A DNA stretch of 64,000 nucleotides. It comes from Candidatus Aenigmatarchaeota archaeon. Lineage in GTDB: Archaea; Aenigmatarchaeota; Aenigmatarchaeia; QMZP01. The notes under the pieces are model-generated. The model ran no database searches, was not told the DNA's origin, and saw only the letters and a list, made by a program, of their open reading frames with translations. Position numbers and translations under genes: made by a program. The DNA lies in assembly GCA_026397335.1 (NCBI GenBank), contig JAPLVB010000048.1, positions 136 through 64,135 of the forward strand, in the 5' to 3' direction. Of this stretch, positions 2,089 through 61,144 are shown piece after piece (position 1 is the stretch's first letter; every line of letters starts with the position of its first letter).

Positions 2089-3117
2089 ATGGAGCCGCAT
2101 TCTATTGAGCTTCCCAGAAAAATCCTCATGGGCAAAGGCGTTTCCGGAAGGATGCTGGGGCTTTGCAAAGAATTAAGGATTATGGGCAGGCCGCTGGTTC
2201 TTGCTGATTCTGTAACAAAGGGGATAGCAGGCGACCGCGTGTTCCAGGACCTCAGGAATCTGGACGCGAGAATGGAGATCGTAAAGGAGGCTACAATCCA
2301 GGAGGTCGCGAGGATAAGCAGGAGGGCAGGGCCCATAGACGCTGTTATAAGCGTGGGCGGGGGTTCTGTGATAGATGTGGGGAAGGCTGTCGCATTCAGA
2401 AAACAGGTGGACTTCATATGCGTCCCTACCGCTCCCTCACATGACGGGATAATTTCAGCAACAGCCAGCCTGCTGCATGGAAGGAAAAAGGTTTCTGTCC
2501 GCGGGAAGATGCCTCTCGCCATAGTGGCTGACACAAAAATCCTGAAAAGTGCGCCAAAGCGGCTGATAGCATCCGGTTATGCTGACGCGGTCTCAAACAT
2601 AACTGCAGTGTATGACTGGAAGCTCGCAAGGAAGAAAGGCGAGTATTATTCTGAGTATGCAGCCGAGCTCGGGATGCTCGCGGCCAAAAAAGCCATGCGC
2701 TCCGCGAACCTGATAAAGCAGGGGAGCGAGCGTGGCGTTCGCAACCTCATGGAAGCCCTTATAACCTCAAGCGTGGCCATGACAATGGCAGGCTCCTCAA
2801 GGCCTGCCTCGGGAGCAGAGCATGCAATTTCTCACGTGCTTGATAGCATGGGCTCCAGGGCACTGCACGGGGAACAGTGCGGGGTGGCTTCTATAGTGAC
2901 TGCATGCCTGCAGGGTCAGGACTGGTGGAAGATAAGGAAGGCCCTTAAGGATGGGGGAGCTCCCACAACAGCAAAAGAGCTCGGGGTGGGCAGGCAGAAA
3001 TTCCTGCAGGCAATAGTGAAAGCCAGGAATTACAGGGAAAGGTACACAATACTGAACGAGAAGAATGTGGACCTGAAAAAAGCAGAAAAAGCGTGCAAGG
3101 ACACAGGAGTTTGCTGA
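2089..3117 (+). CDS. egsA: Glycerol-1-phosphate dehydrogenase [NAD(P)+] (archaeal lipid backbone synthesis, EgsA/G1PDH)
   Basis: DHQS/GlyDH-fold motifs ISVGGGSVIDVGK and PTAPSHDGI. Start moved to the ATG at 2089 (MEPHSIELP) because the longer ORF would overlap ftsY on the opposite strand. Confidence 0.8.
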   Translation: MEPHSIELPRKILMGKGVSGRMLGLCKELRIMGRPLVLADSVTKGIAGDRVFQDLRNLDARMEIVKEATIQEVARISRRAGPIDAVISVGGGSVIDVGKAVAFRKQVDFICVPTAPSHDGIISATASLLHGRKKVSVRGKMPLAIVADTKILKSAPKRLIASGYADAVSNITAVYDWKLARKKGEYYSEYAAELGMLAAKKAMRSANLIKQGSERGVRNLMEALITSSVAMTMAGSSRPASGAEHAISHVLDSMGSRALHGEQCGVASIVTACLQGQDWWKIRKALKDGGAPTTAKELGVGRQKFLQAIVKARNYRERYTILNEKNVDLKKAEKACKDTGVC

Positions 3118-3314: not shown

Positions 3315-4100
3315 ATGGAAGTTTTAAGGTACATAAAAAGGAAAAAGAAGCCGCGGGTTTTCAAGTACATAAAGAAGAAGAGGAAAGGCCACCCGCTTCA
3401 CTTCACCCTTATAGATCCGGACAAGCAGATGCCCGAGAAGGCCGCGGAGATAGCGGAGAGGGCAAAGAGATTCGGCTCGGACGCGATAATGGTTGGCGGC
3501 TCGCATCCCACGCAGGCAATGTATCTGGATGACTGCGTGAAGGCGATAAAGGCGAAAGTGGAACTTCCTGTGATACTTTTCCCTTCCGCGCATTCCGGGA
3601 TTTCCGCGTATGCAGACGCGATATTTTTCATGTCCCTCCTGAACTCCAAGTCTCCTCAGTATATAGTTGAGGAGCAGATGAAGGGAGCCGTCCTTGTGAA
3701 GAACTACAAGCTTGAGCCCCTTCCAATGGCATACCTTATCGTGGACTCGGGAGAGACAACAAGCGCTGCATGGATGGGTGATGTGCGGCCCATCCCGAGA
3801 GAGAAGCCTGAGTTTGCAGTGGGCTATGCCCTTGCCGCCAAATACTTCGGTATGCGCTTTGTCTACCTGGAAGCGGGCTCGGGGGCAAAGCAACCTGTCC
3901 CTGATGAGATGATAAAAACCGTGAAGCACAGCATAGAGCCCGAGATGCTGCTGGTAGTGGGCGGCGGCATAAGGGACGGGAAGACCGCAAGGGAAAAGGT
4001 GAAGGCAGGCGCGGACATAATTGTCACGGGAACTGTTGCAGAAGGCAAGGATGAGAGCAAGCTAATGGAAGTGATACAGGCGGTCAGGGGGAAGAAATGA
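3315..4100 (+). CDS. Geranylgeranylglyceryl phosphate synthase (PcrB/GGGPS family)
   Basis: Full-length similarity to the PcrB/GGGPS TIM-barrel family (FTLIDPDK, IMVGGS, VVGGGIR). It lies immediately downstream of G1PDH. Confidence 0.8.
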   Translation: MEVLRYIKRKKKPRVFKYIKKKRKGHPLHFTLIDPDKQMPEKAAEIAERAKRFGSDAIMVGGSHPTQAMYLDDCVKAIKAKVELPVILFPSAHSGISAYADAIFFMSLLNSKSPQYIVEEQMKGAVLVKNYKLEPLPMAYLIVDSGETTSAAWMGDVRPIPREKPEFAVGYALAAKYFGMRFVYLEAGSGAKQPVPDEMIKTVKHSIEPEMLLVVGGGIRDGKTAREKVKAGADIIVTGTVAEGKDESKLMEVIQAVRGKK

Positions 4101-15350: not shown

Positions 15351-15397
15351 CGCCTGCCTCATCCTATACCTTTTTCTTTCCTGAAAGCGGAGCGATG

Positions 15398-15991
15398 CTA
15401 AATCACCAGCACGTGCCACGCCACAAGGGCTTTTTCTATCAGGCTTATGGCAATTGCTGCTGTCAGGATTCCCATTATCCTTGTGAAGATTTTCAGGCCG
15501 TTGTGGCCGATTATCTTGACTATGCGCGTGCTGTAGTAGAGGAAGAAAAAGCACAGGAACATCACGAAAAATATGGCTGCCAGGGTGATTTCAGCTCCGT
15601 ATGTGTGCGTGAAGTAGATGGAGGTGGTTATTGCCCCCGGACCTGCAAGCAGGGGAGTGGCAACAGGAACTATCACATCAGACGGGTCCTTTTCCACGCT
15701 TCTTGTCTTGGGAAGCTCTCCCTTGATGAATTCGAACGAGAGGTAAAGGAGCAGGATACCGCCCGCTATCATGAATGCGGGAAGCGAGACGCTCATCCTC
15801 TCGAGGATTGCCGTACCGAAAAGGGAGAAGGCCACCAGAAGGAGGAGGGCAGCTATTGTTGCCTCCAGGGCAGCTTTTTTCTGCTTGGTCCTGTCTGACT
15901 TGCCAAAAAGCACCAGGAATGTCGGTATAGCTATAAGCGGGTCTATTATAACGAACATGGAAACGAAAACGGTGAGGAAATCCAGGGGCAT
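15398..15991 (-). CDS. MarC-family (UPF0056) integral membrane protein
   Basis: About 6 TM segments with an N-terminal FVIIDPLIAIPTFL motif characteristic of MarC/NAAT proteins. Confidence 0.75.
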   Translation of the reverse strand: MPLDFLTVFVSMFVIIDPLIAIPTFLVLFGKSDRTKQKKAALEATIAALLLLVAFSLFGTAILERMSVSLPAFMIAGGILLLYLSFEFIKGELPKTRSVEKDPSDVIVPVATPLLAGPGAITTSIYFTHTYGAEITLAAIFFVMFLCFFFLYYSTRIVKIIGHNGLKIFTRIMGILTAAIAISLIEKALVAWHVLVI

Positions 15992-18481: not shown

Positions 18482-18832
18482 TCATCTCTTACTATCCAAA
18501 TCCCTTTTCAGTTTTAGCATACTGTCTTTCAATTCCGGTATGTCCCTTTGGACAACTTTCCATGTAAGTTCCAAATCAACTCCAAAATACTCGTGTATGA
18601 GGATATCTCTCATACCCGCAATCTCTTTCCATGCAATATCTGGATATTTGTTTTTTATTTCCTTTGGTATATTTTTAACCGCTTCGCCTATAATTTCAAT
18701 TCTTCTTATGACAGCATCCTGTACCTGTTCCGATTCTAAAAAACCATCCTTTGTTATTCCCTTTGTATATTCCTCAATTTTTTCTATGCATTCCAGCATA
18801 TGCTCTATGAAAACTTTCGGATCCTTTTTCAC
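18482..18832 (-). CDS. HEPN-domain protein (DUF86), paralog of the gene at 15012-15350
   Basis: [15 protein letters not shown]; about 50% identity to HEPN copy 1. Confidence 0.8.
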
Positions 18833-28132: not shown

Positions 28133-28729
28133 ATGGATATGTACTTCGACATAGAGGTCGCTTACACAGACCCTAAATATTTGGAACTTATGAAGCTTGG
28201 GAGGAAGACCCCTGACCCGCACCCTAGCAACTGCAAGATAATCACGATACAATACCAGCTGCTCAAGGATGACGGGACGCCTAAAGGCCCCTTGAGAATA
28301 TTCAGGGAGTGGGATTCTTCTGAGGAGCAGATTATCAGGAAGATTGCGACCATGATACATCCCCAGAGGAAATGGGAGTTCATACCAGTGGGCCACAACA
28401 TCTATTTTGACCTTGGGATGCTTAGGGAGAGGGCCTCCCTTTACGGGATAAACTACCCTGCCTGGTTTATCTACAATGACCTGCCGAGCATAGACATCAA
28501 GCACATATGCGTGGGAATGAACGCATTCAAGCTCAAGGATTCGGGGCTGGACAAGTTCTCAGGAAAGGAGACAAGCGGATTGAACGTGCCTGTATGGTAT
28601 CAAGAGAAAGAGTATGGCAAGATAATAGATTACATAGAGAAAGAGGCGAAAGAGTTTATAGAATTCTACAGGAAACTGAAGGAGACGCTTCCTCTATTTC
28701 GCCAGCAGCATGGATTTTGTAAGGATTGA
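28133..28729 (+). CDS. Predicted 3-prime-5-prime exonuclease with the DEDD/RNase-H-like fold
   Basis: YFDIEV (Exo I DxE), IPVGHNIYFDLGML (Exo II) and YGKIIDY (Exo III Y-x3-D). Confidence 0.5.
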   Translation: MDMYFDIEVAYTDPKYLELMKLGRKTPDPHPSNCKIITIQYQLLKDDGTPKGPLRIFREWDSSEEQIIRKIATMIHPQRKWEFIPVGHNIYFDLGMLRERASLYGINYPAWFIYNDLPSIDIKHICVGMNAFKLKDSGLDKFSGKETSGLNVPVWYQEKEYGKIIDYIEKEAKEFIEFYRKLKETLPLFRQQHGFCKD

Positions 28730-29162
28730 CATGCCCCAGATATTTGTCTATTTCTTTGCTTGTTTTATCCATCTTGGCTTTTAGTATGTTCATAACATCT
28801 TTTGTTTCTTTGGGAGAAAACCCAGCTTCTGTAGCATCGGAAATATTCCTTTCTATGAATAAAATATCGCTTGCAGCTTTCCAAAAACGTCTTTTTTCTA
28901 GGTCTTCCTGTGCACACTCCAATTGTTCTTTGTAAAAGCCCTTCTTGTCGCAATATGCTTTAATAGAGTCAAGCATCCCAAGACCTAACAGCTTTCTATA
29001 AAATTCAGACGACTCGTCTTTGTCAGGATGGCATACATATTTTACAAACCTGCTTGTAAGACCAAGGGCTCCATATTCACCTGAAAGTATAGAGTTTAGA
29101 ATTTCCTTTGCAATAACCCCTTCAAAGAAGGTATTGTAAAATTGGGAATCCAATCCTTCCAT
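28656..29162 (-). CDS. Hypothetical protein (start set at MEGLDSQ to avoid overlapping the upstream gene)
   Basis: ORF only; its 3-prime end overlaps the exonuclease gene antisense by about 74 nt. Confidence 0.3.
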   Translation of the reverse strand: MEGLDSQFYNTFFEGVIAKEILNSILSGEYGALGLTSRFVKYVCHPDKDESSEFYRKLLGLGMLDSIKAYCDKKGFYKEQLECAQEDLEKRRFWKAASDILFIERNISDATEAGFSPKETKDVMNILKAKMDKTSKEIDKYLGHVNPYKIHAAGEIEEASPSVSCRIL

Positions 29163-29167
29163 AATAC

Positions 29168-29554
29168 TCACTTTCTTTCGTATATTTCCAGTTCGTGCGG
29201 TCTTGTTTGCTTGGCGCCCAAAATAGTATTCATTGCCCTCAACCCGTTCAATCTCTCTGTCAATTGCCTGCATACATAGGCGGCTCCGTCAGCTGTTTCT
29301 TCCTCATCGTTTGGGAGCGTTACAGGGCCTTGAATACTCGTTTTGCTATGAGAATCGAGTTCAAATATCATGACATAATCAGTGTCAGTGCCGTGGGGAA
29401 CCTCACTTTCAACTATCAAGGTCCCCTTGATATACAATTCTAATTTCGGTCTGTACATTCTTTCAAGATTGGTTAATTCCACTGTCTGCTCAAAGCATTC
29501 GTCCCTGAAATCCTTCTTAATTTTAGGAACCCTATTCTTTATCATATTTACCAC
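29168..29554 (-). CDS. Hypothetical protein
   Basis: ORF only. Confidence 0.35.
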   Translation of the reverse strand: MVNMIKNRVPKIKKDFRDECFEQTVELTNLERMYRPKLELYIKGTLIVESEVPHGTDTDYVMIFELDSHSKTSIQGPVTLPNDEEETADGAAYVCRQLTERLNGLRAMNTILGAKQTRPHELEIYERK

Positions 29555-29902
29555 TTATTGATGGTTACTTTATTCCTTTATAAAGCTTTCTCCAAGGGAA
29601 TCCTCACTTCCCTCTTTTGCCTTGGGTAAATCCTTATTAAAATGCTTACCATTGGGGGCAGCTTTTTGCCGTTCCTATAGACAAATCCCTCAAAATCGCT
29701 ATCTATCACCTCTATTTTGTCTCAAGAGAAGCTTCCCTTCCACTAAGGGGTCAAATTTCAGGGAACCCTCACTCTAGTGTCTAAAAGTCATTTTATAAAA
29801 TATATTATATAAAGAATATTTATAAAAATATAATATAAAATAGATATTTTTGAATAGTATATATTTTATAGATATAATTAAAAATGGTTAAAATAAAATA
29901 TA

Positions 29903-30478
29903 TTATTTAAAATCTATATTTCTGAAGGCTTTCTCTACATACATGCTGTTTTTTCTAATCTGGAAAGACTGATGAAATCCGAAAAATGAGTCCCATGATA
30001 CCGATTTAGTTACAGTGAAAAATCTATAATTCTCTCCTTCCGGTTGGATAATCCACAAAGAAGTTTTCGGGCTTTCAAGATAGTCGATGGCTTTCCTTAT
30101 AGCGCATGGACCGCATTCCAAGGTTATTGTTTCTTCTCCCTTCTTTGCAAGAACATCTGGTATGCCTCCCATAAAACCGCATTCTATTGACGCTATTCTA
30201 TATCCCAAGTCTTTAAGCAATCTGATGCCGAATGCCTTCATCTCCTTCTGAGGACCCCGGATTCCTCCTATCTTTACAGGAGTCTTTTTGAGCGTTTTCT
30301 TTCTGATGAAGATCGCTTTGTTGTCCAGAAAACCAGCAACTATAACCGCATATTCGCTACTTGTATATCTGATATTGCCTTGTGTGAAAATATCATTTAT
30401 CCTATCAATTGTTTCGAATTTTGTCTTGTAGGTCTTTATGAGGGAGACATATCTCTCCGCTTCAGTTGTCATGCACAA
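29903..30478 (-). CDS. Hypothetical protein with a weak PD-(D/E)xK-like motif
   Basis: GGIPDVLAKKGEETITLECG resembles a restriction-endonuclease-fold PD...ExK with the Lys replaced; speculative. Confidence 0.3.
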   Translation of the reverse strand: MCMTTEAERYVSLIKTYKTKFETIDRINDIFTQGNIRYTSSEYAVIVAGFLDNKAIFIRKKTLKKTPVKIGGIRGPQKEMKAFGIRLLKDLGYRIASIECGFMGGIPDVLAKKGEETITLECGPCAIRKAIDYLESPKTSLWIIQPEGENYRFFTVTKSVSWDSFFGFHQSFQIRKNSMYVEKAFRNIDFK

Positions 30479-30485
30479 ACCTCTT

Positions 30486-31064
30486 TCAGAACAAATCGCC
30501 CATTATCTTCTCATAGCTTTTCTGCACGGAATCCATGCTAGGCGTTCCATAAACGTCTATGGTTGTCTTTATGGAAGAATGTCCGAGTATCTTTTGGACC
30601 TCCTCCATCCTCATCCCTTTCTCCAGCATCATCCTGGCGAAGGAGTGCCTGAAAAGATGAGGATTGATGCATTTCTTGGCAGGGTTTGGGTGATTTACCC
30701 CAGCTCTTTGGCCGCATTTTGCCACTATTTCATTGATTTGCTTAAGGGAAATGGTGCTCTGCTTGTTGCTTATTATGAGCTTGCCGGATGACCTGTCCCC
30801 TAGATAGAACTTAATATCCTGAAGGGTATCGGAATCTACAGGCACAGTCCTGCTTTTGTCTCCTTTGCCGCTCCTTATGTATATCCTTTTCTTTCCGAAA
30901 TCGACATCCTTTATGGTGAGATCCCGGAGCTCGAACCTTCTCATTCCTGTCCTGGCAAGTATCTTTATTATAACCCTATCCCTGAGGGAAGAAGCACACA
31001 AGATAATTTTCCCTATGTCTTCCTTTGCCAAATAATAGAAAGACTCCTTTGCAGCTTCTGACAT
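30486..31064 (-). CDS. Tyrosine recombinase/integrase, short catalytic-domain-only form of about 192 aa
   Basis: ARTGMRRFEL (box I Arg), KGDKSRTVP (Lys), HLFRHSFA (H-x-x-R) and LGHSSIKTTIDVYG (His...Tyr nucleophile). No N-terminal core-binding domain. Confidence 0.8.
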   Translation of the reverse strand: MSEAAKESFYYLAKEDIGKIILCASSLRDRVIIKILARTGMRRFELRDLTIKDVDFGKKRIYIRSGKGDKSRTVPVDSDTLQDIKFYLGDRSSGKLIISNKQSTISLKQINEIVAKCGQRAGVNHPNPAKKCINPHLFRHSFARMMLEKGMRMEEVQKILGHSSIKTTIDVYGTPSMDSVQKSYEKIMGDLF

Positions 31065-31259
31065 GTATTAAATTACGTTACACTTATTTATAAAGGTTAC
31101 GTTTTAGTTACACTTTATAAATTAATGTTACATATAAAGTTACAAAATATACATTCTGTAACGTTTTCTATAGAGAACATCTTTTGGAAGGTACTCAATA
31201 ATCAGGAGGCTAGCTTCCTAAGCTAAACTACCCCAGAAAACGCGATTTGCTCTTGGAAC

Positions 31260-31631
31260 CTAAGCGGCGACTTTCTTCTCTTCCTTTCCGGGCTTTGGCT
31301 GCTTCTTCTTATCTTCCTTTGCTGCGTTCTCCTCTATCTGGGAGAACTTCTTTATCATTGCCTCCACATTATGCGCTATGTCCCAGCCGTCATCCGTGAG
31401 TATGACCTTCTTTATGCGGCCCTGCTTATCGAATTTAACTATGCCCAGGTTCCTGAAAGCGTTTAGGATCTTTATTGTGTGCGAATACGTACAATCAGAT
31501 TCCTTGGCCAGAATAGTCGCATAAACGGGCTTATCCTTGCCGGTTTTCAGGCCCATGAGAATCCTTGCCGGCTTCTCCCTAAGAAACAAATCCTCTAACA
31601 TCCGGTTTTGTGGCATAGTTCTCATCTTCAA
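31260..31631 (-). CDS. Winged-helix DNA-binding protein with a lysine-rich C-terminus
   Basis: wHTH-like segment YATILAKESDCTYSHTIKILNAFRNLGIVKF. Confidence 0.45.
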   Translation of the reverse strand: MKMRTMPQNRMLEDLFLREKPARILMGLKTGKDKPVYATILAKESDCTYSHTIKILNAFRNLGIVKFDKQGRIKKVILTDDGWDIAHNVEAMIKKFSQIEENAAKEDKKKQPKPGKEEKKVAA

Positions 31632-31945
31632 TTTTCACAATAATTTTATGTATTTGTATTATATAAATGTTTCGTTTCTTATTTCATATAATATAGTTTA
31701 TAAAGTATTCTTTATTTATAATATAATAAAATAGATATTATATAAAATAGTTATTTAATTAGAATTATTAAAATATAGTTATTTTAATATATATTATTAA
31801 GTAGTATATTTTTAATCCTCACGGCCAAAGTGAGAGTTCCTTCCAAGAATGGCCCAATAAGGTGAGAGAGATGTTTCACGAGAGAATAGGGTCAATACAT
31901 ATCGGTTTATATAATAATCTCCCTAAGGGCGTAGATTCTAGGATA

Positions 31946-35686: not shown

Positions 35687-37009
35687 TCAGTGAACATACC
35701 CCTTCTTCCCCTTTATATAGTCCTTTGAGATTCCAGAGCCATACTCATTCCCTGTTTCCCCATAGTTTTTGAATTCTGTCTCAGGCTTTCTTTCTTCTAC
35801 CCTTTCTTCGCCTCCCGAGGGCCACGTTACCTCGAAAATATTTTTTGACATTTCGGGTTCTATGTTCAGCCGGGACTGGTAGCTCAGGCCTGTGGGGAAT
35901 TTCCACAGGAGCTTTCCTTCTGTTGTTACAGCATAAAAATTGCAGTCCCATGAGCCGAAATAGATAATATTGCCTGAAATGACCGGTATGGACACAACAA
36001 TCCCGTTTGTTGCGAACTTCCAGAGCATTTTCCCCGTTGCAATATCAACAGCATAAATGTTGTTTTCCTCGCTTCCAAAATAGGCCGCATTGTTGAAAAC
36101 GATGGGTGTGGACGCTATATATTTTGTTGAAAATTTCCACAAGATTTCTCCTGTCGGTATTTTAACTGCATAAAGATTGTTATCTCTCGAAGGGACAAAA
36201 AGTACGTTTTTGTGCAATACAATGGAATTGCTGATGCAGTCTTCTGTCCTGAATCTGAACACAAGCTGCCCGGATGTGTTTACGCCGTACACATTGTTGT
36301 CCATGCTCCCGAAGTATATGACATTGTCAAGAGGAATGGAATTATACCGTATGCTATTTTTTGTTGGGAATTTCCATAAAAACCTGCCTTCCAAGGTCAA
36401 TGCATAGAAATTGAAGTCCTCGGAACCTATATACAGGACATCCTTGTAAACCATCGGATAGGCGCATACAGGGCCGGCTGTCTTGAACTTCCACTTCAGC
36501 CTTCCGTTAAGTCTAAGACAGTATACATTTCCATCTTTTGCACCGAAATATATGGAATCCCTATATACGCATGGCTTTGACAATATTTTATCACCCACGC
36601 TGAATTTCCACAGGAGATTCCCTGTGTTTATATCCAATGCGTATAAGTTCCCGTCAAATGAGCCAAAATAAACCACGTTTTCTGCCAGCATGGGATGGGA
36701 GCATACGCCGAATGTATTGAATTTCCATACAAGGCTACCATCTTTTGATATTGCGTAGAAATTATTGTCGCACGCGTTGAAATAAATCGTGTTGTTATGT
36801 ATGATGGCTTCGCTCCAAATGCTTCCTCCTGTTTCTATATCCCACTCCGCGTTAATCCTGCGTCTTTTCATTTCCATTACGGCGTATTCTATCTGGATAT
36901 TCTCGAATTCTGGACTAAGAGTAAAGCTGGAGCTGGCCCGCATAGAATACTCTCTACCAGAAAGGTACTTTTCCATATGTAGTATTTTTATTGAAAGCTT
37001 TATTAACAA
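35687..37009 (-). CDS. PQQ-like beta-propeller repeat protein, paralog of the gene at 19169-20461
   Basis: Same repeat signature (YFGS.D.NLYA...G.LLWKF). Confidence 0.75.
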   Translation of the reverse strand: MLIKLSIKILHMEKYLSGREYSMRASSSFTLSPEFENIQIEYAVMEMKRRRINAEWDIETGGSIWSEAIIHNNTIYFNACDNNFYAISKDGSLVWKFNTFGVCSHPMLAENVVYFGSFDGNLYALDINTGNLLWKFSVGDKILSKPCVYRDSIYFGAKDGNVYCLRLNGRLKWKFKTAGPVCAYPMVYKDVLYIGSEDFNFYALTLEGRFLWKFPTKNSIRYNSIPLDNVIYFGSMDNNVYGVNTSGQLVFRFRTEDCISNSIVLHKNVLFVPSRDNNLYAVKIPTGEILWKFSTKYIASTPIVFNNAAYFGSEENNIYAVDIATGKMLWKFATNGIVVSIPVISGNIIYFGSWDCNFYAVTTEGKLLWKFPTGLSYQSRLNIEPEMSKNIFEVTWPSGGEERVEERKPETEFKNYGETGNEYGSGISKDYIKGKKGYVH

Positions 37010-37085: not shown

Positions 37086-38291
37086 ATGGACGTCAAAAGA
37101 ATAAGGGAGGACTTCCCTGTCCTAGAGAATTCGAAGGGAATTGTGTACTTTGACAATGCCTGCATGAGCCTGAAACCCAGGCAGGTCATCCAGGCAATGC
37201 TGGAGTATTACGAGAGGTACACAGCTTGCGTAGGCAGGAGCAACCACAGGCTGGGGAAGATTGCTACCGAGAAGTATAATGAGGCGCGGAAAGCAATTGC
37301 CAAGTTTGTGGGGGCGAAAAAACCCGAGGAGATAGTCTTCACCCGCAACACAACAGAAGGGATAAACCTGGTTGCCAATTCCCTGGATTTGAAAAAAGGA
37401 GACATCGTCCTGGCAAGCGACAGGGAGCACAACTCCAATCTAATTCCCTGGCAGCTGCTCAAGGAACGGAAAGGGATAGAGCACAGGATTGTGCGCTCGC
37501 GGGAGGATTGCACTTTTGACATGGAGGAGTTTAAGAAATCCATGAGCAGGCAAGTCAAGCTCGTGACAATGGTTTGGACTTCCAATATAGACGGCTACAA
37601 GCTTCCTGTCTGGGAGATAATAAAAACTGCGCATGATTTTGGCGCGCTCGTTTTGCTGGACGGGGCGCAGGCTGTCCCGCACTCAAAAACAGATGTGAGG
37701 AGAATGGATGCGGATTTCCTGGCTTTCTCAGGCCACAAGATGCTAGGGCCCACAGGGACAGGAATCCTTTATGGCAAGTATGAGCTTCTTGAGAGACTGG
37801 AGCCTTTCATGGTCGGAGGGGATACTGTGGAAAGGACAACGTACGAGACGCACAAGTTCCTGAACCCGCCTGAGAAGTTTGAGGCAGGGCTGCAGGATTA
37901 TGCAGGGATGATAGGACTAGGGGAGGCTGCAAGGTATCTTGAGAGGATAGGTATGGAGAACATAGAAAAACACGAGGTTATGCTTAACAAGCTCATTTCA
38001 GAAAGGATTTCCCAGATACCAAACCTCCAGATGGTTGGAATCCAGAACCCGGAACTAAGAGGAGGGATAATATCCTTTAATATAAGGGGAATGAAATACC
38101 ATGACATATCGCTCATGCTTGACCACAACCATGGGATTCTCATTCGTTCAGGCCAGCACTGCTGCCACTCATGGTTTAACGCACGCGGAATAGAGGGCTC
38201 AGCAAGGGCTTCCCTCTACTTATATAATACACAGGAGGAAGCGGAGCTGTTCGCGGAGGCCGTGCAGAAAATAGCAAAATTGGGAAAGTGA
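37086..38291 (+). CDS. Cysteine desulfurase (class-V aminotransferase, SufS/CsdA-like)
   Basis: SGHKMLGPTGTGILYGK (PLP Lys) and a C-terminal RSGQHCC active-site Cys region. Confidence 0.85.
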   Translation: MDVKRIREDFPVLENSKGIVYFDNACMSLKPRQVIQAMLEYYERYTACVGRSNHRLGKIATEKYNEARKAIAKFVGAKKPEEIVFTRNTTEGINLVANSLDLKKGDIVLASDREHNSNLIPWQLLKERKGIEHRIVRSREDCTFDMEEFKKSMSRQVKLVTMVWTSNIDGYKLPVWEIIKTAHDFGALVLLDGAQAVPHSKTDVRRMDADFLAFSGHKMLGPTGTGILYGKYELLERLEPFMVGGDTVERTTYETHKFLNPPEKFEAGLQDYAGMIGLGEAARYLERIGMENIEKHEVMLNKLISERISQIPNLQMVGIQNPELRGGIISFNIRGMKYHDISLMLDHNHGILIRSGQHCCHSWFNARGIEGSARASLYLYNTQEEAELFAEAVQKIAKLGK

Positions 38292-38295
38292 TTTT

Positions 38296-39099
38296 ATGGT
38301 TATTTGTATAGTTGCGCTTGTTGTTTTTGGAATCATGGGAATCTTTTCAGCCAGCCACAGGAAGATTGCTAAAGAAGCGTTCTCCTGCGTGAAAAGGATG
38401 CTCACGTTCCGGCCGTGCGAGACAGGGTTTGATGACAAGGTGCGCTCGAAGGTCACAGCAAAGCTGATGAAAAGGAGCGAAAGAGCGGCTGGGGTTTTTT
38501 ACAGGAATTTCAAGGTGATTTCACTAGCATTCACGGTAGTGTTTTTTGTGAGCATGGCTTATTCAGCCTACGGGCTTTACAATCTTGCTGTTTTGGGGAC
38601 ATGCGACCCCGCAAATCCCCAGAACTGCGTGTTCAATCCAGGAAGCGACCCCAACAGGGTGATATGTCCCTACCAGGGGCTGAGCCCGAATGCGAGCGTC
38701 GCGACCATAGGCAATTTCAGGAATATAGAGTCCGCGAGCATAGAAGCCAAGCCCGCTGCTTATTTTTTCGGCACCACTTGGTGTCCCCACTGCTTATGGG
38801 AAAGGCCGATTTTCATGAATGTCACAGCCAAGTTCTCCGGTTTCATAGACACGAAGGCGATAGAGATTGATATAGAGCAGCCGCCTCTTGAGATGGAGAT
38901 ATTCAAGCACTATTCCCAGGAGGAAGGGAAGATACCTGTGATTGTGATAGGGGGAAAGTACTTCAGGGTGGGGAGTGGGGAGAGCCTAGGAGAGGAGACG
39001 GAAGCGAATGTCCTCACGGCAATCCTGTGCAAGGTCACGAATGACCCGATTTCTGACTGTTCCAGGACAGAGGTCAAGCAGCTTGAGGCCGGATTGTGA
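38296..39099 (+). CDS. Membrane-anchored thioredoxin-fold thiol-disulfide oxidoreductase
   Basis: FGTTWCPHCL (CxxC) in a Trx-like domain after N-terminal TM segments; immediately downstream of sufS. Confidence 0.5.
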   Translation: MVICIVALVVFGIMGIFSASHRKIAKEAFSCVKRMLTFRPCETGFDDKVRSKVTAKLMKRSERAAGVFYRNFKVISLAFTVVFFVSMAYSAYGLYNLAVLGTCDPANPQNCVFNPGSDPNRVICPYQGLSPNASVATIGNFRNIESASIEAKPAAYFFGTTWCPHCLWERPIFMNVTAKFSGFIDTKAIEIDIEQPPLEMEIFKHYSQEEGKIPVIVIGGKYFRVGSGESLGEETEANVLTAILCKVTNDPISDCSRTEVKQLEAGL

Positions 39100-41652: not shown

Positions 41653-42123
41653 ATGGCATTTGTTTTTGAACAAGAGAGCCGGTTAATTGTAACGCTCAAA
41701 AAACAGCACTCCAATATCTTGCTGTATTTGAACAATTTCAACCCGCTTTTATCCGGTAAGCCATTTTCAGAGGCGACTTGCATAGTTACGCTAAGAGAAC
41801 TTAGAAAAATCCTGGTTGAGCATTTGTCATTGGAGGATAAAGAGCTTTATCCGGCTCTTGAACAATCCAAAGTTAAAGAAATCAGGGAAACAGGAAGGAA
41901 ATTGTCAGAAAAAATGCAAGCAATCTCCCAGAAGGCCTTTGATTTCTTTAACAAATACAGCTCAATGAAAACATCTGACATGACCAGCGCACGCTTCAGG
42001 AAAGAGCTCAGTGACTTGAAGGAGCTTATTGTAAAAAGGGTAAAACTGGAAGAAGAGATACTCTATCCTCTATACAGGAAAAACCCCCTAATGACCGAAA
42101 AAGAAAAAAGGAAGTTCTCTTGA
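41653..42123 (+). CDS. Hypothetical protein, possibly a hemerythrin-like HHE domain
   Basis: Two H/E...E(L)YP-type segments (VEHLSLEDKELYPAL, EEEILYPLY); weak. Confidence 0.3.
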   Translation: MAFVFEQESRLIVTLKKQHSNILLYLNNFNPLLSGKPFSEATCIVTLRELRKILVEHLSLEDKELYPALEQSKVKEIRETGRKLSEKMQAISQKAFDFFNKYSSMKTSDMTSARFRKELSDLKELIVKRVKLEEEILYPLYRKNPLMTEKEKRKFS

Positions 42124-42138
42124 ATCACGAACACTTTT

Positions 42139-43722
42139 TTATGGTTTTCCTCTCCTGTAGAAATCGTCCCTGAGCTTCCTTCCAGTCTTCTCCTCCCATT
42201 TGGGGATGGGAAGGGAGAACTTCTTCTGTGTGGGTTCCCTGTACATATCTGGCATCACATTGAACGCGCAGAAAGGAATAATCGGCATCTTGGGGTCAGG
42301 AGTGGCATAGTGTATGCAGCAGCGCTTCACACGCTCCACGTCATAATTGTACTGGTCCATGAAGTGCATCATTCCCACGAACAGGCTCTTGTGGTGGAAT
42401 TCTCCAAGCGCGCTGTAGTCATGCTTCATGAGGGCATTGTATATGACTTTGGAAAGGCTGAAACCCTTGGGCTGTTTCTGCTTGTCTATGAAGCTGTTGA
42501 GCTTGAACATGAGGTTCAGGCCTGCCTTGTAGCGGTTCTTTCCTCTCCTGATGTCATCTGCCAGCGTGTCCAGGTAGCGGAAAAGCCCCTCCACATCCAC
42601 GAATCGCGTTATGGGGAGCATCTTCCCGTTGTCATTGAAAACATAGGTTGCCATCCCACAGCTAAAGTGCGTGGAAAGGGAGTACTTCTGCTTCTTGGTA
42701 ATGGCCTCCACAAAATTTGTTATGGGCATTACGCTGGGAACTGGGTAGAAATCCTCCCTGGAGACTTCCCCTTTTGTCTGTTCCTCTATACTTTTTATGG
42801 CGTCAGGGATGGTTATCCTGAAATTGTCCCTCTCCTTCTTGGGCATCCTGCCCACCAAAGAGACAGGCTGGTAGTTCACACCTCGTATAACATCATTGTT
42901 CTTGAACCCGAAGCGGAGGATGTCCCCGAGCTCGTGGTCATTCACACCCTTTATAACTGTGGGTACAAGGACTATCCCTATCCCGGCTTTCCTGCAGTTT
43001 TCCATGGCTTTGGGAACCTCCCAGTGGTTCTTGGGGTTTGTCTTCTCGGTAACGCCGTCAAAGCTCATGTAAAGGATATTCACTCCTGCCTCCCTGACAC
43101 GCATGGCTAGAGCAGGCGACTGTGAAAGGCGGATCCCATTAGTGTTCAGCTGGACGTGGTCTATTCCCCCTTCCTTGCAGATTTTTATTATCTCAATAAG
43201 ATCTTCCCTCATGGTAGGTTCCCCGCCTGTAAGCTGAACTGCATTGCACGGGACAGGCTTCTCGTTCACAAGATTCTTCACCATGAAGCGAATTTGCTCA
43301 AGTGTGGGCTCGTACACGTAACCCATCTTCTGTGCATAGTAGAAGCAATACCAGCATGCCAAATCACACCTGTTAGTAACCACTATATTTGCAAGGGCCG
43401 TATGGCTCTTGTGCATCTTGCACAGGCCGCAATCATTCGGGCAAATAGGATTCTCCTTCTCCACGTTAGGGTTTGACACACCCTTTCCGTCCCTGGCAAA
43501 GCTCCTGGCTTTCTCGTACATCTGGTAGTCTCCCCAGTACAGTTCCTCAAAATCCCCATGTGTGGAACAGGTCTTCTTAATCCAGACCTTCCCGTCCCTC
43601 TCGAATATCTCTGCGGGAAGAACCTTCTGGCATTCAGGGCAGACTGACTGGGTCTTCACAAGAGCATGGTTGTACGGGTGCCTTATCACCCTGTGAATTT
43701 TTGGGGATTTTTTCGCTGGCAT
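42139..43722 (-). CDS. Large radical-SAM enzyme with extra Cys clusters; candidate tetraether-lipid-synthase (Tes/GDGT-MAS)-like protein
   Basis: Canonical CDLACWYC (Cx3Cx2C), plus an N-terminal CPEC...C.TH rubredoxin-like motif, CPNDCGLC, and C-terminal CC/C motifs; 527 aa. The Tes assignment is inference from architecture. Confidence 0.7.
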   Translation of the reverse strand: MPAKKSPKIHRVIRHPYNHALVKTQSVCPECQKVLPAEIFERDGKVWIKKTCSTHGDFEELYWGDYQMYEKARSFARDGKGVSNPNVEKENPICPNDCGLCKMHKSHTALANIVVTNRCDLACWYCFYYAQKMGYVYEPTLEQIRFMVKNLVNEKPVPCNAVQLTGGEPTMREDLIEIIKICKEGGIDHVQLNTNGIRLSQSPALAMRVREAGVNILYMSFDGVTEKTNPKNHWEVPKAMENCRKAGIGIVLVPTVIKGVNDHELGDILRFGFKNNDVIRGVNYQPVSLVGRMPKKERDNFRITIPDAIKSIEEQTKGEVSREDFYPVPSVMPITNFVEAITKKQKYSLSTHFSCGMATYVFNDNGKMLPITRFVDVEGLFRYLDTLADDIRRGKNRYKAGLNLMFKLNSFIDKQKQPKGFSLSKVIYNALMKHDYSALGEFHHKSLFVGMMHFMDQYNYDVERVKRCCIHYATPDPKMPIIPFCAFNVMPDMYREPTQKKFSLPIPKWEEKTGRKLRDDFYRRGKP

Positions 43723-43834
43723 AAAATCAATTGTCTTTGATGGTTTTTAAAGTTTTCAATCCAACGTTTCCAATTCGTTAATCAACAGTTAATGGGAGAC
43801 AAATGGTTAAAAATGCCCGGAAGCAATCTTTATC

Positions 43835-45079
43835 ATGGACTTCTCTTCTGATACAGGCTCCCTGTGCGCAAGGTGCAAGGGAAGGATGTGGTGCGGAAAG
43901 GACAGGTGCCCCCTTCTTGTCAAGTTCTATGCGCAGACAAAGGCCAAGCCTCTTATAGATTCCTTACATCTTGAGGGTTCTTCTCCCCCATCCGTTTTTG
44001 TTGGCAGGTTCAGCTACCCGAAGGTTTACATAGGTCCAATGCTCCCCCCGCAGCATGGGGATACGAGCTTAATGGACACGCCCGAATTGTGGACAGGAAT
44101 GAGCATAGATGAAATAGTGGACTTTCGCTTCCAGCTCGTGCGCGGGAAGTTCCTTAACCCGGTAAAGAATTTTGACGGAAAGATTATAGAGCAGACAAGG
44201 GAGATAGCGCTGGCTGAAAAGTCTCCTGACGCGGAACTGGAGTTCAAGAAGAAGCCGGCAGGCAAGCTTGTCATGAATGATGAGATTCAGCCTTTCGGGC
44301 CTTCCGCGCTGCTTGCGAAACTGGATGTGGGGAATGTGAAGTTTGACAAGTATATAGAGAAGGCCTTTTATGACACAGACCTGAAGGCGAGGGAGGCTGT
44401 GATAAGCCTGCATGAGAGAGGGGTTCTGGTCTCGAAAATCCAGAAGGCTTTCTCAGTGGGGGCTTTCGGTGTGGGGAAGAACCGCAAATTTGTGCCCACA
44501 AGATGGAGCATAACTGCAGTTGATGACACGCTTGGGAAGAACCTCATGACTTATACGCGGGATTATCCCCTGATAAACGAGTTCAGGGTTTATGAGCACG
44601 TGCAGCTGGACAACCGCTGGCTCATTCTCATGCTTCCAAGGGAATGGTGCTATGAGCTGATAGAAGCATGGTATCCGAACACGATATGGAACCCTGCCGG
44701 AAGGAACATAGAGATTTTCTCTGACCATGAATTCTATGACGGGAGGACTACATATGCGGACATAGGAGGCTGTTACTATGCGGCAAGGCTTGCCACGAAC
44801 GAGCTGCTCAACCGAGAAAAGCGCCAGGCAGGAGTGGTGATAATGAGGGAGACCCATCCCGGATACATAATGCCGGTGGGGGTGTGGAATGTTCGGGAGG
44901 CTGTGCGCGCAGCTGTGAAAAATCCCCCGTACAGGTTCGCAACACTCCAGGAAGCCTTGGACTTCGTGGGCAGGAGAATGGACATTCCTGTAAGCAGGTG
45001 GATTGAGAAAAGCTCTATTCTGAAGGATACCATGAGGCAGAGGAAGCTGGTGGATTTTTTCATGGCTAAGACAACTTAG
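43835..45079 (+). CDS. Hypothetical protein with an N-terminal Cys4 zinc motif; possibly Nre-family (DUF650/651) DNA-repair-associated
   Basis: CARCKGRMWCGKDRCP N-terminus on a ~414-aa archaeal-style protein; family assignment from memory. Confidence 0.35.
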   Translation: MDFSSDTGSLCARCKGRMWCGKDRCPLLVKFYAQTKAKPLIDSLHLEGSSPPSVFVGRFSYPKVYIGPMLPPQHGDTSLMDTPELWTGMSIDEIVDFRFQLVRGKFLNPVKNFDGKIIEQTREIALAEKSPDAELEFKKKPAGKLVMNDEIQPFGPSALLAKLDVGNVKFDKYIEKAFYDTDLKAREAVISLHERGVLVSKIQKAFSVGAFGVGKNRKFVPTRWSITAVDDTLGKNLMTYTRDYPLINEFRVYEHVQLDNRWLILMLPREWCYELIEAWYPNTIWNPAGRNIEIFSDHEFYDGRTTYADIGGCYYAARLATNELLNREKRQAGVVIMRETHPGYIMPVGVWNVREAVRAAVKNPPYRFATLQEALDFVGRRMDIPVSRWIEKSSILKDTMRQRKLVDFFMAKTT

Positions 45080-45494
45080 CAGCCGAACCATCATCCTTGG
45101 TGACCTTCTCCTTCACGGCCTCATATAGCGGCCGGAATATGGCCTTAGCAATAGAAATTATGTCCTCTATATCCGCCGTATTCGGCCTGTAGCCATAATA
45201 ATTTATGTTGTGCCTCAGCCGTTTCAGGTTCCATAAAAGACTTATTGGTTTTTGTGTGTTCACGCTCAGTTCTGTAAGCTCCTTTATCGGAGCTGAATGA
45301 TCTTCTGATTCGATGCCTTTGGAGACCAATAAGGCATCCCCTAACATCCTAAAGCATTCATATATGTTCCTTACAATAGTCGGCCCAGAAGATTCAGTGA
45401 CTTTCATTGCTAATGTAAATTCCATATCTCTTTTTGCGGCTTCGGTGAGGCTTAATGCGTTCTTTTTATCCGGTCTTTTGTACCTCGTTTTCAT
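45066..45494 (-). CDS. HEPN-domain protein, partner of the upstream wHTH-nucleotidyltransferase
   Basis: RLRHNINYYG (R-x-x-H-N HEPN motif); 4-nt overlap with the NT gene. Confidence 0.55.
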   Translation of the reverse strand: MKTRYKRPDKKNALSLTEAAKRDMEFTLAMKVTESSGPTIVRNIYECFRMLGDALLVSKGIESEDHSAPIKELTELSVNTQKPISLLWNLKRLRHNINYYGYRPNTADIEDIISIAKAIFRPLYEAVKEKVTKDDGSAAKLS

Positions 45495-46081
45495 GGCCTC
45501 GCTTCCAGAAAGCCTTCCAGCACGATACCGTTGGCTATATTTGCGAACAGGTTCAAATCAACTTTGTTTCTTGAGAAAATATACAGATTCACCGTAACAT
45601 TCTCTCTGTAACCAAACTGGGGAATAGCTCCCAACTTGACAAGCTTCACGTCTTCATTACCCACGACTTCCACGGCAATGTCAATGTCGCTTTTTTCCAT
45701 ATCGTCACCTTTCCTGTAACTCCCGAACAGGGTTATCGATCTAGGATTCGGTATGATATGATGGATTTCCTGGAGTATCGAGGATTCATAGATTAGCATT
45801 AGATGGTAAGGAATCTTTCTTGTGTGATTAAAAGGATGGTTCTGGTTGCAGGAAATCCTCCAGAGCCTGCCTAGGACTTCCCTGTTGAGGAATCCATCAT
45901 CCACGAAGTCTAAGACAATCCTTTTTGCTGTGGTTTTGGATATTCCCAACTCTTCGGAGAGGTCATTCAGCCCCATTTCTCTGGAGGGATAGGCAAAAAA
46001 CCAATGCTGAACATGATTGTAGGCTTCAGTCAGTTCAATCATTTCTACCTTCAATTTCTTGTTCATGTTATATGGTAACAT
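45491..46081 (-). CDS. Nucleotidyltransferase with an N-terminal winged-helix domain
   Basis: LFGSYRKGDDMEKSDIDIAV (GS...DxD), preceded by an HTH (LSEELGISKTTAKRIV). Confidence 0.75.
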   Translation of the reverse strand: MLPYNMNKKLKVEMIELTEAYNHVQHWFFAYPSREMGLNDLSEELGISKTTAKRIVLDFVDDGFLNREVLGRLWRISCNQNHPFNHTRKIPYHLMLIYESSILQEIHHIIPNPRSITLFGSYRKGDDMEKSDIDIAVEVVGNEDVKLVKLGAIPQFGYRENVTVNLYIFSRNKVDLNLFANIANGIVLEGFLEARP

Positions 46082-47268: not shown

Positions 47269-48009
47269 CTAGAACTTCTCCAACCACTTCACAGTCAGCC
47301 CAATAACCTCATCTACCTTCCCCGTGAAGAAGTGGTTCCCGCCTTCTATGATTTCCAGCTTGGAGCCCTTAGGAAGGAGCTTGATGGCCTCCCTGGAATC
47401 CTGGACCGGGACAATGTCATCCGCGTCCCCATGGATTATCATGACAGGCTTCTTGACCGCGGAAAGGATTTTCTCCCTGTCAACGCCTTTCCTCTCGTTA
47501 ACGTACAGCCTTTCTATCTTATGCTCCACGCCCCTGGCGTTCTTTATCATGGCAAATCCCTTTTTATCCAGCTGTTCCTTCACCTCTTTCGTGGAGTATA
47601 TGGAAGGGACCTTTGCAGTGGTCACGGGAGCCCACAGTACGAGCGTGTAGATGTCCTTGTCATACGAGAGGATGGATATAAGGCCTCCGAGACTCGAGCC
47701 CACCAGTGCGATTTCTGTATATCCTTTCCCGCGCATGAACAATATTGCGCTCCTGAGATCATCCACTTCCTTGGCGACAGTTATGGTGTCCGGGTCGCTC
47801 TCCCCGCATCCCGAGAAATCGAACCTCAGGACGGCTATCCCTATGGCCTCAAGTCGTTGTGCCAGCTTGGGGATTTTCTCGTGAGAGCCTGTCTTGTCGC
47901 TCGTGAAGCCGTGTGCTATAATCACCGCTTTCTTTGTAGGCCTTTCGGGTGTGTGCAGAATACCTACGAGGTTCAATCCCCTCGAGTTCCGGAAAGTCAC
48001 TCTTTCCAT
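47269..48009 (-). CDS. Alpha/beta-fold hydrolase
   Basis: GSSLGG nucleophile elbow (GxSxG) with downstream Asp/His candidates. Confidence 0.75.
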   Translation of the reverse strand: MERVTFRNSRGLNLVGILHTPERPTKKAVIIAHGFTSDKTGSHEKIPKLAQRLEAIGIAVLRFDFSGCGESDPDTITVAKEVDDLRSAILFMRGKGYTEIALVGSSLGGLISILSYDKDIYTLVLWAPVTTAKVPSIYSTKEVKEQLDKKGFAMIKNARGVEHKIERLYVNERKGVDREKILSAVKKPVMIIHGDADDIVPVQDSREAIKLLPKGSKLEIIEGGNHFFTGKVDEVIGLTVKWLEKF

Positions 48010-48012
48010 GCT

Positions 48013-48288
48013 TCACTTCCTAGCCAGCAAAATCTCAACCTCCTGGAGAGAAGCTCCGTCCACGAAAATCTCCTTGTGACTGCTCTGCAAGCCGCGGACT
48101 ATCCGGACATCCCTTCTCAGGATTTTTATGAGATTCTTTACAATCTCCTGGTTGGCCTTCCCGCCTTCCGGGGGGCTTTTTGTGGTGACTGTTATCTCGT
48201 CTTTCCCGAGCTTTACTGAAAATCTGCCGGAGCCAGGCCTAGCTTTGATTTCCAGGATTACCCCGTTCTGTACCTGCCTTATTGTCAT
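48013..48288 (-). CDS. DUF167/YggU-family protein
   Basis: Family pattern (...KARPGS...V.APP.GKAN..I...I...). Confidence 0.65.
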   Translation of the reverse strand: MTIRQVQNGVILEIKARPGSGRFSVKLGKDEITVTTKSPPEGGKANQEIVKNLIKILRRDVRIVRGLQSSHKEIFVDGASLQEVEILLARK

Positions 48289-57164: not shown

Positions 57165-57527
57165 TTATTTCATGAGCGACTTGACTTTCTCCGCAATCTC
57201 GTTCACCAGCTTCTTCGCGTCACCTTCCTGCGCAATTGCGATTGATGAGGTGGGAACGTCTATCCCGCATGCCTTGCCTAGCTCAACCTTTGAAGGCACA
57301 AAAACATACGGCACTTTCTTCTCATCGCATAGAACCGGAAGATGCATAAGGATCTCCGGAGGCGTGACGTCCTCGGCCATTACAACAAGCTTTGCAATTC
57401 CCCTGTCTATCGCCTTGGTGGTCTCGTTTACGCCTTTCTTGATCTTTCCGCTGGATTTCGCGACTGTAACGGCTTCGTAAACCTTTTCCACAAGATCCTT
57501 CGAAACCTTGAATTTCACGAATGTCAT
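57165..57527 (-). CDS. rpl7ae: Ribosomal protein L7Ae (K-turn binding)
   Basis: Full-length match ([28 protein letters not shown]...LP.LC.EK..PY..V.SK..LG.A.GI). GGAGG lies 7 nt upstream of the ATG. Confidence 0.9.
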
Positions 57528-60043: not shown

Positions 60044-61144
60044 ATGGGTGAAATAAAGCTTGCTATCGCGGGCGTGGGCAACTGCGCCTCTTCCCTTGTG
60101 CAGGGATTCTTCTATTACAAGGACGTTGATTCCAACAATAGGCTCATACCGGGGCTCATGCACAACGTCCTGGGAGGGTATAAAATCTCGGACGTGAAGC
60201 CAGTCGCCGCGTTTGACGTGGACGCGCGCAAGGTCGGGAAGGACCTTTCCGAGGCAATATTCGCGCTTCCCAACTGCACAAAGGTCTTCTGCAAGGATGT
60301 CCCGGACATGGGCGTGTCCGTGATGAAGGCGCCCGTCTTGGATGGCATCGCGGAGCACATGAAAGACTATCCTGAAGATAGGAGTTTCTTAGTCTCCAAA
60401 GACAAGCCTGTGGACGTGGCGAAAGTTCTCAAACAAACTGGAGCAGAAGTGTTTGTTAATTATGTTCCAGTAGGTTCTGAACAAGCTGCACAATACTATG
60501 CACAGTGTGCGCTGGACGCAGGCTGCGCATTCGTGAACTGCATGCCTGTTTTCATAGCCTCTGACCACAAGTGGTCCGAAAAATTCCACCAGGCCGGCCT
60601 TCCAATAGCAGGGGATGACATGAAGAGCCAGCTAGGTGCAACCATTCTGCACAGGACGCTTGTGAAGCTATTCGCAGACAGGGGAGTGAAGATAGACAGG
60701 ACATACCAACTCAACACGGGCGGGAACACGGATTTCCTGAACATGCTGGAACGCTCCCGCCTGAAGAGCAAGAAGCTGAGCAAGACCCGCTCAGTCCAGT
60801 CGCAGCTTCCTGTCCCGCTGGAAGAGGAAAATATACATATCGGACCGAGCGATTATGTGCCCTGGCAGAAGGACAACAAGATATGCTTCATTCGCATAGA
60901 AGGCCGCAAATTCGGGGACGTCCCTCTTGACCTTGAGCTCCGCCTCTCGGTTGAGGATTCTCCGAACAGCGCGGGAGTGGTCATAGATGCAGTAAGGTGC
61001 GCGAAGCTTGCCCTGGACAGGAGCATCTCCGGACCCCTGACAAGCATATCCGCCTACACCATGAAGCATCCGCCCCAGCAGTATCCTGACCCGGTGGCCA
61101 GGCAGATGGTGGAAGAATTCATTAAAGGGGAGAGGGAGCGCTAG
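60044..61144 (+). CDS. myo-Inositol-1-phosphate synthase family protein (archaeal/bacterial short form)
   Basis: N-terminal Rossmann [16 protein letters not shown], a GGNTDF segment and a length of about 366 aa; assigned from memory. Confidence 0.55.

Follow-up and report, generated by a model that had tools for sequence, protein, structure and literature searches.

The window, a stretch of 64,000 nucleotides from a contig of a Candidatus Aenigmarchaeota archaeon (DPANN), carries on its minus strand, at positions 42139 to 43722, a gene that very probably encodes the tetraether lipid synthase Tes (also called GDGT-MAS, from the glycerol dialkyl glycerol tetraethers, GDGTs, that it forms), a radical S-adenosylmethionine (SAM) enzyme with four metal sites that would couple the phytanyl chains of diether lipids by radical chemistry. 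The protein belongs to the Tes family, keeps the metal ligands and the fold of its characterised relatives and has its native place in a DPANN genome; its catalytic activity, its dominant product and the source of its diether substrate are proposed here by analogy with the enzymes already studied. A first-pass annotation of the same DNA had placed an open reading frame (ORF) of 527 aa at exactly these coordinates and proposed it as a candidate tetraether synthase, and both proposals are borne out by the comparisons described below. The gene and the parts of its product are as follows.

42139..43722, minus strand: Tes / GDGT-MAS ortholog, ATG start, 527 aa; listed at NCBI as MCX6815020.1 under the name "radical SAM protein"
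43534..43656, minus strand: rubredoxin-like N-terminal domain, residues 23-63, with predicted Fe ligands C28, C31, C52 and H55; PF23545 Zn_ribbon_HMPTM, E 2.5e-21
43411..43443, minus strand: N-terminal auxiliary [4Fe-4S] motif, C94-x3-C98-x2-C101-x2-H104
42910..43386, minus strand: radical-SAM core, residues 113-271, with C119-x3-C123-x2-C126; Pfam PF04055, E 3.4e-29
42268..42660, minus strand: C-terminal auxiliary-cluster / lipid-binding domain, residues 355-485, with M452, C355, C468, C485 and Y472

The assignment to the family rests in the first place on the NCBIfam equivalog NF045702 (tetraether lipid synthase Tes), the best curated model, which the protein matches at 748 bits (cut-off 450, E 4.1e-225), from residue 23 to residue 505 and over positions 1-485 of a 486-position profile. 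With an E value of 4e-225 against the Tes equivalog, the set of motifs is no chance pattern. Among solved structures the lone full-length match is the GDGT-MAS of Methanocaldococcus jannaschii (PDB 7TOL/7TOM; E 3e-151, residues 18-511, 49.7% identity), the next being MoaA at E 1.6e-9. A relative with 68% identity (P0031) is already named "tetraether lipid synthase Tes" at NCBI, and the protein of the window is thus an unnamed member of a known and structurally solved family that has a curated equivalog model, with an orthodox enzymology. A 266-aa antisense ORF inside the gene (42310-43110, plus strand) looks spurious.

The protein contains 16 cysteines, and the motifs that the first-pass annotation had read in it are all found in their places: CPEC supplies C28 and C31, C.TH corresponds to C52-S-T-H55, CPNDCGLC holds C94, C98 and C101, and CDLACWYC holds C119, C123 and C126 of the radical-SAM core, which also contains the SAM-binding motif GGEP (G166-G167-E168-P169). 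The C-terminal "Cys pairs" of the same annotation are to be reduced to one, since the C-terminal part contains a single CC pair (C468/C469), in which C468 is invariant and C469 is found in only 53 of 81 homologs, plus the lone cysteines C485 and C355.

The conservation of the ligands was followed in an alignment of 81 sequences (the protein of the window, the M. jannaschii enzyme and 79 homologs translated from species-representative genomes), and all the Tes-specific auxiliary-cluster and rubredoxin ligands align with those of M. jannaschii. According to the structural study of Lloyd et al. (2022; PMC9433317), mj0619 (UniProt HMPTM_METJA) encodes GDGT-MAS, which holds a rubredoxin site C9-X2-C12-X20-C33-X2-H36, an N-terminal auxiliary cluster bound by C73, C77 and C80 plus a conserved His, a radical-SAM cluster in a CX3CX2C motif and a C-terminal cluster with the labile Met439. 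The rubredoxin ligands C28, C31, C52 and H55 correspond in the alignment to C9, C12, C33 and H36 of M. jannaschii, with C52 kept in all 81 sequences, H55 in 80 and C28 and C31 in 79 (the other two have gaps). Invariant in 81/81 are the ligands of the N-terminal cluster, C94, C98, C101 and H104 (C73, C77, C80 and H83 in M. jannaschii), the radical-SAM cysteines C119, C123 and C126 (C98, C102 and C105), M452, which is the counterpart of the labile M439, and C355, C468 and C485. Because of this invariance the last three may be taken as the Cys ligands of the C-terminal [4Fe-4S] cluster. The position of C438 in M. jannaschii is occupied here by Met451 and C469 is variable, as stated above, so that neither is likely to be a ligand. 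The active-site and SAM-loop residues Q268, S271, R275 and Y459 are kept as Q285, S288, R292 and Y472, and a second, independent alignment of 46 sequences (A1) gives the same conserved ligands and active-site residues.

The AlphaFold2 model built on alignment A1 has a mean pLDDT of 89.2 and a pTM of 0.89, with disorder only at residues 1-15. In a Foldseek comparison with 7TOL/7TOM, it superposes with a TM score of 0.87 (query-normalised) or 0.93 (target-normalised) and an rmsd of 2.1 A over 509 columns, and the superposition on 7TOL takes in all four domains, while the other PDB matches, of which MoaA is the next, are restricted to the radical-SAM barrel (TM about 0.33). The protein has no predicted transmembrane segment (maximum Kyte-Doolittle score over 19 residues 1.02), and by homology with the M. 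jannaschii enzyme it would be a soluble or membrane-associated radical-SAM enzyme.

Compared with the known systems, the protein is nearest to the M. jannaschii GDGT-MAS (MJ0619), to which it is about 50% identical from end to end, with the same four domains, the same ligand sets for the rubredoxin Fe, the N-terminal cluster and the radical-SAM cluster, and the same labile Met of the C-terminal cluster. It differs in an extra basic and disordered N-terminus of about 20 residues (pLDDT below 50 at residues 1-15), in Met451 at the position of C438, and in its source, a DPANN archaeon rather than a methanogen. The Tes proteins studied by Zeng et al. (2022), Saci_0703, MA_1486 and Maeo_0574, belong with NF045702, the model on which the present protein scores 748 bits, and like them it is encoded by a single-copy, stand-alone gene; MA_1486, however, adjoins genes for GGR and a ferredoxin (PMC8941075), whereas the gene of the window adjoins hemerythrin-domain and Nre-family genes. 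The next-best family is the radical SAM (seleno)protein TrsS (NF045646), which shares the N-terminal ribbon and the radical-SAM core and whose cut-off the protein does not reach. For the bacterial Tes homologs and membrane-spanning lipid synthases the same tail-to-tail radical coupling has been proposed, but the relatives of the present protein are archaeal.

The reaction can be outlined by analogy. The radical-SAM [4Fe-4S] cluster (C119/C123/C126) would cleave SAM reductively and generate a 5'-deoxyadenosyl radical, which would take a hydrogen from an archaeal diether phospholipid, at the terminal methyl carbon of a fully saturated phytanyl chain. The resulting substrate radical would be kept on the C-terminal [4Fe-4S] cluster (M452 plus C355/C468/C485) in the form of an S-C bond until another SAM activates a second phytanyl chain at its terminal carbon and both carbons join into a C40 biphytanyl chain. 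A first coupling between two lipids would give GTGT (glycerol trialkyl glycerol tetraether) and a second one a GDGT, at a cost of four SAM in total, while a coupling inside one lipid would give macrocyclic archaeol; electron transfer is the presumed role of the rubredoxin iron and of the N-terminal cluster. This outline follows the M. jannaschii enzyme, for which Lloyd et al. (2022; PMC9433317) describe fully saturated archaeal diether phospholipids as the substrate, the intermediates S-AG and S-GTGT, a second SAM for each C-C bond and hence four for a GDGT, a passage through GTGT on the way to it, and macrocyclic archaeol as what forms by intramolecular coupling. Zeng et al. (2022; PMC8941075) obtained GDGT, GTGT and macrocyclic archaeol with Maeo_0574 and with MA_1486 in Methanococcus maripaludis. 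The protein of the window does not depart from the known Tes template, and we infer its activity and its product spectrum by analogy with these enzymes.

Where the diether substrate would come from has to be judged from the other lipid genes. The window was annotated with Pfam and NCBIfam over essentially all ORFs of at least 110 aa, and contains three genes of this kind in addition to Tes.

2089..3117, plus strand: glycerol-1-phosphate dehydrogenase (egsA, G1PDH); NF002022 394 bits against a cut-off of 413; 38 kb from Tes and not its operon partner
3315..4100, plus strand: geranylgeranylglyceryl phosphate synthase (GGGPS); TIGR01769 260 bits against 161.6, Pfam PcrB 1.9e-61; directly downstream of G1PDH
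60044..61144, plus strand: myo-inositol-1-phosphate synthase (MIPS); Pfam PF01658 8e-36, TIGR03450 493 bits against 638; 16 kb from Tes

The coordinates that the first-pass annotation had given for egsA and GGGPS are correct, with G1PDH recognised by its best PDB matches (4RGQ, 4RFL and 5FB3, E 1e-47 to 1e-52, where glycerol dehydrogenases reach only about 1e-17) and GGGPS by TIGR01769. The "membrane-lipid theme" that it had seen in them holds in so far as G1PDH, GGGPS and MIPS are genuine, the last as a possible supply of head-group precursor; it does not hold as a cluster, since the genes are spread over 58 kb, Tes stands alone and the G1PDH-GGGPS pair is 38 kb off. Three or four lipid-related genes over 58 kb make a theme that is real but loose. 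It gains some support from certain other archaea, in which G1PDH-GGGPS clusters with Tes: about 1.3-8 kb separate the pair from Tes in another Aenigmatarchaeota metagenome-assembled genome (MAG; L031), in a Bathyarchaeia MAG (L033), in Ca. Hecatella (L042) and in two Hadarchaeales-type contigs (L045, L049). The G1PDH-GGGPS pair is conserved across Aenigmatarchaeota, and its order with FtsY, which is divergent from G1PDH, recurs in the Aenigmatarchaeota contigs L031 and L082. In a GGGPS search, the two closed chromosomes considered below (1,051,577 and 832,879 bp) are not among the 120 matches listed of at least 8,000.

An archaeol substrate requires further enzymes, namely DGGGPS, CarS, GGR with its ferredoxin, geranylgeranyl diphosphate (GGPP) synthase and those of the mevalonate pathway. 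Several points weigh against the reading of the gene as a tetraether-forming Tes of this archaeon. Genes for DGGGPS/UbiA, CarS, GGR/ferredoxin, a polyprenyl (GGPP) synthase and the mevalonate pathway were not found in the 64-kb window, and Tes has here no co-transcribed lipid gene. Aenigmarchaeota were reported without a complete mevalonate pathway, so that they would make no membranes de novo, while G1PDH and phospholipid enzymes were noted in them (Li et al., 2021). Some haloarchaea with Tes homologs contain no detectable GDGTs, and Saci_0703 gave no product in a heterologous host (Zeng et al., 2022; PMC8941075).

An alternative would be that the Aenigmarchaeote makes no isoprenoid diethers de novo and that Tes remodels diethers scavenged from a host into membrane-spanning tetraethers. 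DPANN archaea generally depend on host lipids, the mevalonate pathway is incomplete in the Aenigmarchaeota of Li et al. (2021), the window is devoid of DGGGPS, CarS, GGR and mevalonate genes, and Tes works on finished, saturated diether phospholipids, so that an imported lipid could serve. This reading is nevertheless rather unlikely. G1PDH and GGGPS catalyse the first two committed steps of archaeal lipid assembly and would be pointless in a pure scavenger, yet they lie on the same contig; the pair is conserved across the phylum and some Aenigmatarchaeota MAGs do have mevalonate genes, as found in a 2024 survey; and the gene absences concern 64 kb of the genome only. With G1PDH and GGGPS in its genome, the organism is more likely to assemble its lipids autonomously, in part at least.

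The Tes protein might also give no GDGT in vivo, being inactive, limited to macrocyclic archaeol or directed to another lipid. Precedents are the haloarchaeal homologs without GDGTs, which make the gene alone an unsafe predictor of tetraethers, the bacterial homologs, for which different lipids have been proposed, and product ratios that vary among homologs, with MA_1114, for example, being weak (Zeng et al., 2022; PMC8941075). Such an outcome is improbable for the present protein, which scores far over the equivalog cut-off, conserves all the ligands and the active-site residues tested, and is 60-70% identical to homologs from, among other lineages, Nitrososphaeria and Thermoprotei. Both of these lineages are GDGT producers. 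Production of tetraether (or macrocyclic) lipids by the Aenigmarchaeote is regarded as plausible on the strength of its gene.

Since Tes homologs in DPANN MAGs were called "unexpected" and possibly derived from hosts (Zeng et al., 2022; PMC8941075), and since the source of the window is itself a MAG, the contig or the gene might stem from a co-binned host. MCX6815020.1 is deposited in a Ca. Aenigmarchaeota MAG, on a contig of 64,452 bp, with G1PDH, GGGPS, MIPS and GatE as neighbouring accessions, and three genes of the window are of use as markers of the contig.

927-2042, minus strand: FtsY (SRP receptor), usable phylogenetic marker
57165-57527, minus strand: ribosomal protein L7Ae, usable phylogenetic marker
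7546-9417: GatE, marker gene of the contig

A host origin is very improbable, as the evidence on synteny, composition and phylogeny speaks against it. The window is colinear over about 35-50 kb with two other contigs (L002 and L003), in which Tes is 89-90% identical. A closed Aenigmatarchaeota chromosome of 1,051,577 bp (CP070801.1) encodes its own Tes, around which it shares with the window a Na/H exchanger, a class-III aminotransferase, Peptidase_A24, MC1 and an AMP-phosphorylase (51-67% identity), and a second closed small genome of 832,879 bp (CP070662.1) also has Tes. The GC content of the gene (0.497), its GC3 and its codon usage (codon distance 0.173) are those usual on the contig. The relatives at 63-90% identity are mostly Aenigmatarchaeota MAGs, and in a bootstrapped neighbour-joining tree the protein groups with those of L002 and L003 in 100/100 replicates, while a Hadarchaeota clade (100/100) excludes it. 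Among the most frequent groupings (73 of the 100 replicates are listed), the sequence placed as immediate sister comes from an archaeal MAG that is either labelled as DPANN or unlabelled. Synteny with a closed chromosome, native codon usage and nearest-neighbour phylogeny thus show that Tes belongs, in this DPANN lineage at least, to the genome itself and does not come from a contaminating host. The backbone of the tree is weak (13-16% bootstrap), so that no claim is made on vertical inheritance versus ancient transfer. In the same tree, Tes homologs of 57-59% identity from contigs labelled "bacterium" or "Candidatus Falkowbacteria" (L059, L067, L071) are nested among archaeal sequences, and these contigs are probably mis-binned archaeal ones.

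The chance that the protein belongs to another radical-SAM family (TrsS, MoaA or SPASM/twitch maturases such as PqqE, AhbD and anSME), or is the methanopterin methylase suggested by the Pfam name Zn_ribbon_HMPTM, is negligible and this reading is refuted: the TrsS model, at 350 bits (residues 23-489), falls short of its cut-off (490) and lies 400 bits behind the Tes model, MoaA gives 81 bits against 284 (TIGR02666) and 78 against 325 (TIGR02668), AhbD 51 against 500, PqqE 36 against 381 and NirJ and the other SPASM enzymes at most 51 against cut-offs of at least 380, with the SPASM/twitch matches restricted to residues of about 112-280 and the structural matches to other families restricted to the radical-SAM core (TM 0.33). 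As for the methylase, MJ0619 (HMPTM_METJA) is GDGT-MAS according to Lloyd et al. (2022; PMC9433317), so that "HMPTM" is an older label of the same family and no rival to it.

With Tes placed in the DPANN genome, the significance of the gene lies in the biology rather than in the enzymology, to which it adds nothing new, the label "radical SAM protein" being a matter of database lag. The new part is the physical linkage of Tes with G1PDH, GGGPS and housekeeping genes on one DPANN contig. DPANN archaea are a group usually assumed to take their lipids from others, and a native Tes bears both on the dependence of these symbionts on host lipids and on who feeds the environmental GDGT pools that are used as proxies. 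It can tentatively be proposed, with somewhat less than even confidence, that Aenigmatarchaeota differ from the classic lipid-scavenging DPANN in natively encoding G1PDH, GGGPS and Tes, that they either make their own membrane-spanning GDGTs or turn host diethers into tetraethers, and that they are an unrecognised in-situ source of GDGT-0 in habitats that are anoxic or thermal. If this is true, the reservation of Zeng et al. (2022) on DPANN Tes as host contamination would fall away.

In its local context Tes is a stand-alone, monocistronic gene between unrelated genes. Downstream of it, after a gap of 15 bp, lies a convergent hemerythrin-domain gene (41653-42123, plus strand), and upstream, after 112 bp, a divergent gene of the archaeal Nre family (43835-45079, plus strand). 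The further neighbours encode a cation-efflux protein, a Na+/H+ exchanger, a thioredoxin-fold membrane protein and a SufS-like cysteine desulfurase, none of them lipid-related. The interval upstream of the start codon contains one feature of note.

43744..43757, minus strand: putative archaeal promoter, with a purine-rich GAAAAC resembling a B recognition element (BRE), then a TATA-like TTTAAAAA; read from the sequence

The element GAAAAC-TTTAAAAA occupies positions -35 to -22 relative to the ATG of Tes, with the TATA-like part at -29 to -22, and would fit an archaeal BRE/TATA promoter giving a leaderless or near-leaderless mRNA; the TATA-like box was picked by eye, as the scan for bacterial-type promoters and terminators is inapplicable to an archaeon. 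On the coding strand, an oligo-T run follows the stop codon.

Some observations concern the surroundings of Tes. The hemerythrin-domain gene has a GC content of 0.39, well under that of its neighbours, and is missing at the matching site of L002, which is colinear in other respects and has the cation-efflux gene as the next one after Tes; this suggests a recent insertion. At 37086-39099 (plus strand), the SufS-like cysteine desulfurase gene (457 bits against a cut-off of 475) is followed by that of a membrane protein of 267 aa, which has no Pfam match and carries a thioredoxin-like WCPHC motif; the pair is kept in L002 and lies 4 kb from the gene for the Fe-S-rich Tes. Two paralogs with a PQQ-like beta-propeller (19169-20461 and 35687-37009, both minus strand; Pfam Beta-prop_ACSF4/PQQ_2) have homologs near Tes in several Aenigmatarchaeota loci (L013, L016-L018, L025). 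On the closed chromosome CP070801.1, a gene for a B12-binding radical SAM protein (L001, 14990-16381) lies about 3.4 kb from Tes and has no counterpart in the window; a role as lipid methylase would be speculation.

Elsewhere in the window, a low-GC stretch at 28656-31780 (about 0.39 against 0.48) contains unannotated ORFs and the two genes below, and AT-rich repeats at 29777-29914 and 31696-31780 flank the part with these two genes; a small integrated element is a possible explanation. The window gave no match in an Rfam scan and no tRNA gene in a tRNA scan.

30486-31064, minus strand: tyrosine integrase, Pfam Phage_integrase 6e-35
31260-31631, minus strand: helix-turn-helix (HTH) protein, in the low-GC stretch

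Three ORFs on the plus strand (870-1469, 15281-15898 and 47332-48219) are spurious and overlap, respectively, the FtsY gene and the following two.

15398-15991, minus strand: MarC-like protein
47269-48009, minus strand: hydrolase

An ORF of 758 aa at 12003-14279 (plus strand) combines a charged N-terminal region, a major facilitator superfamily (MFS) transporter (residues of about 138-560) and, at the C-terminus (683-756, E 1e-7), a SepF cell-division domain, and would be an unusual fusion if the ORF is real; in L082, a 760-aa gene of unassigned family lies downstream of GGGPS. A D-Ala-D-Ala-ligase-like ATP-grasp protein at 9834-10856 (minus strand; Pfam Dala_Dala_lig_C 7e-30) is under all NCBIfam cut-offs, that of the archaeal pseudomurein Ddl model included. 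Small DUF86/HepT-like proteins, recognised by eye from their sequence, are encoded at 15012-15350 (plus strand) and 18482-18832 (minus strand), and at 45066-46081 (minus strand) a nucleotidyltransferase/HTH protein (45491-46081, Pfam NTP_transf_2) adjoins a 142-aa partner; these small proteins and the nucleotidyltransferase pair are probably toxin-antitoxin modules.

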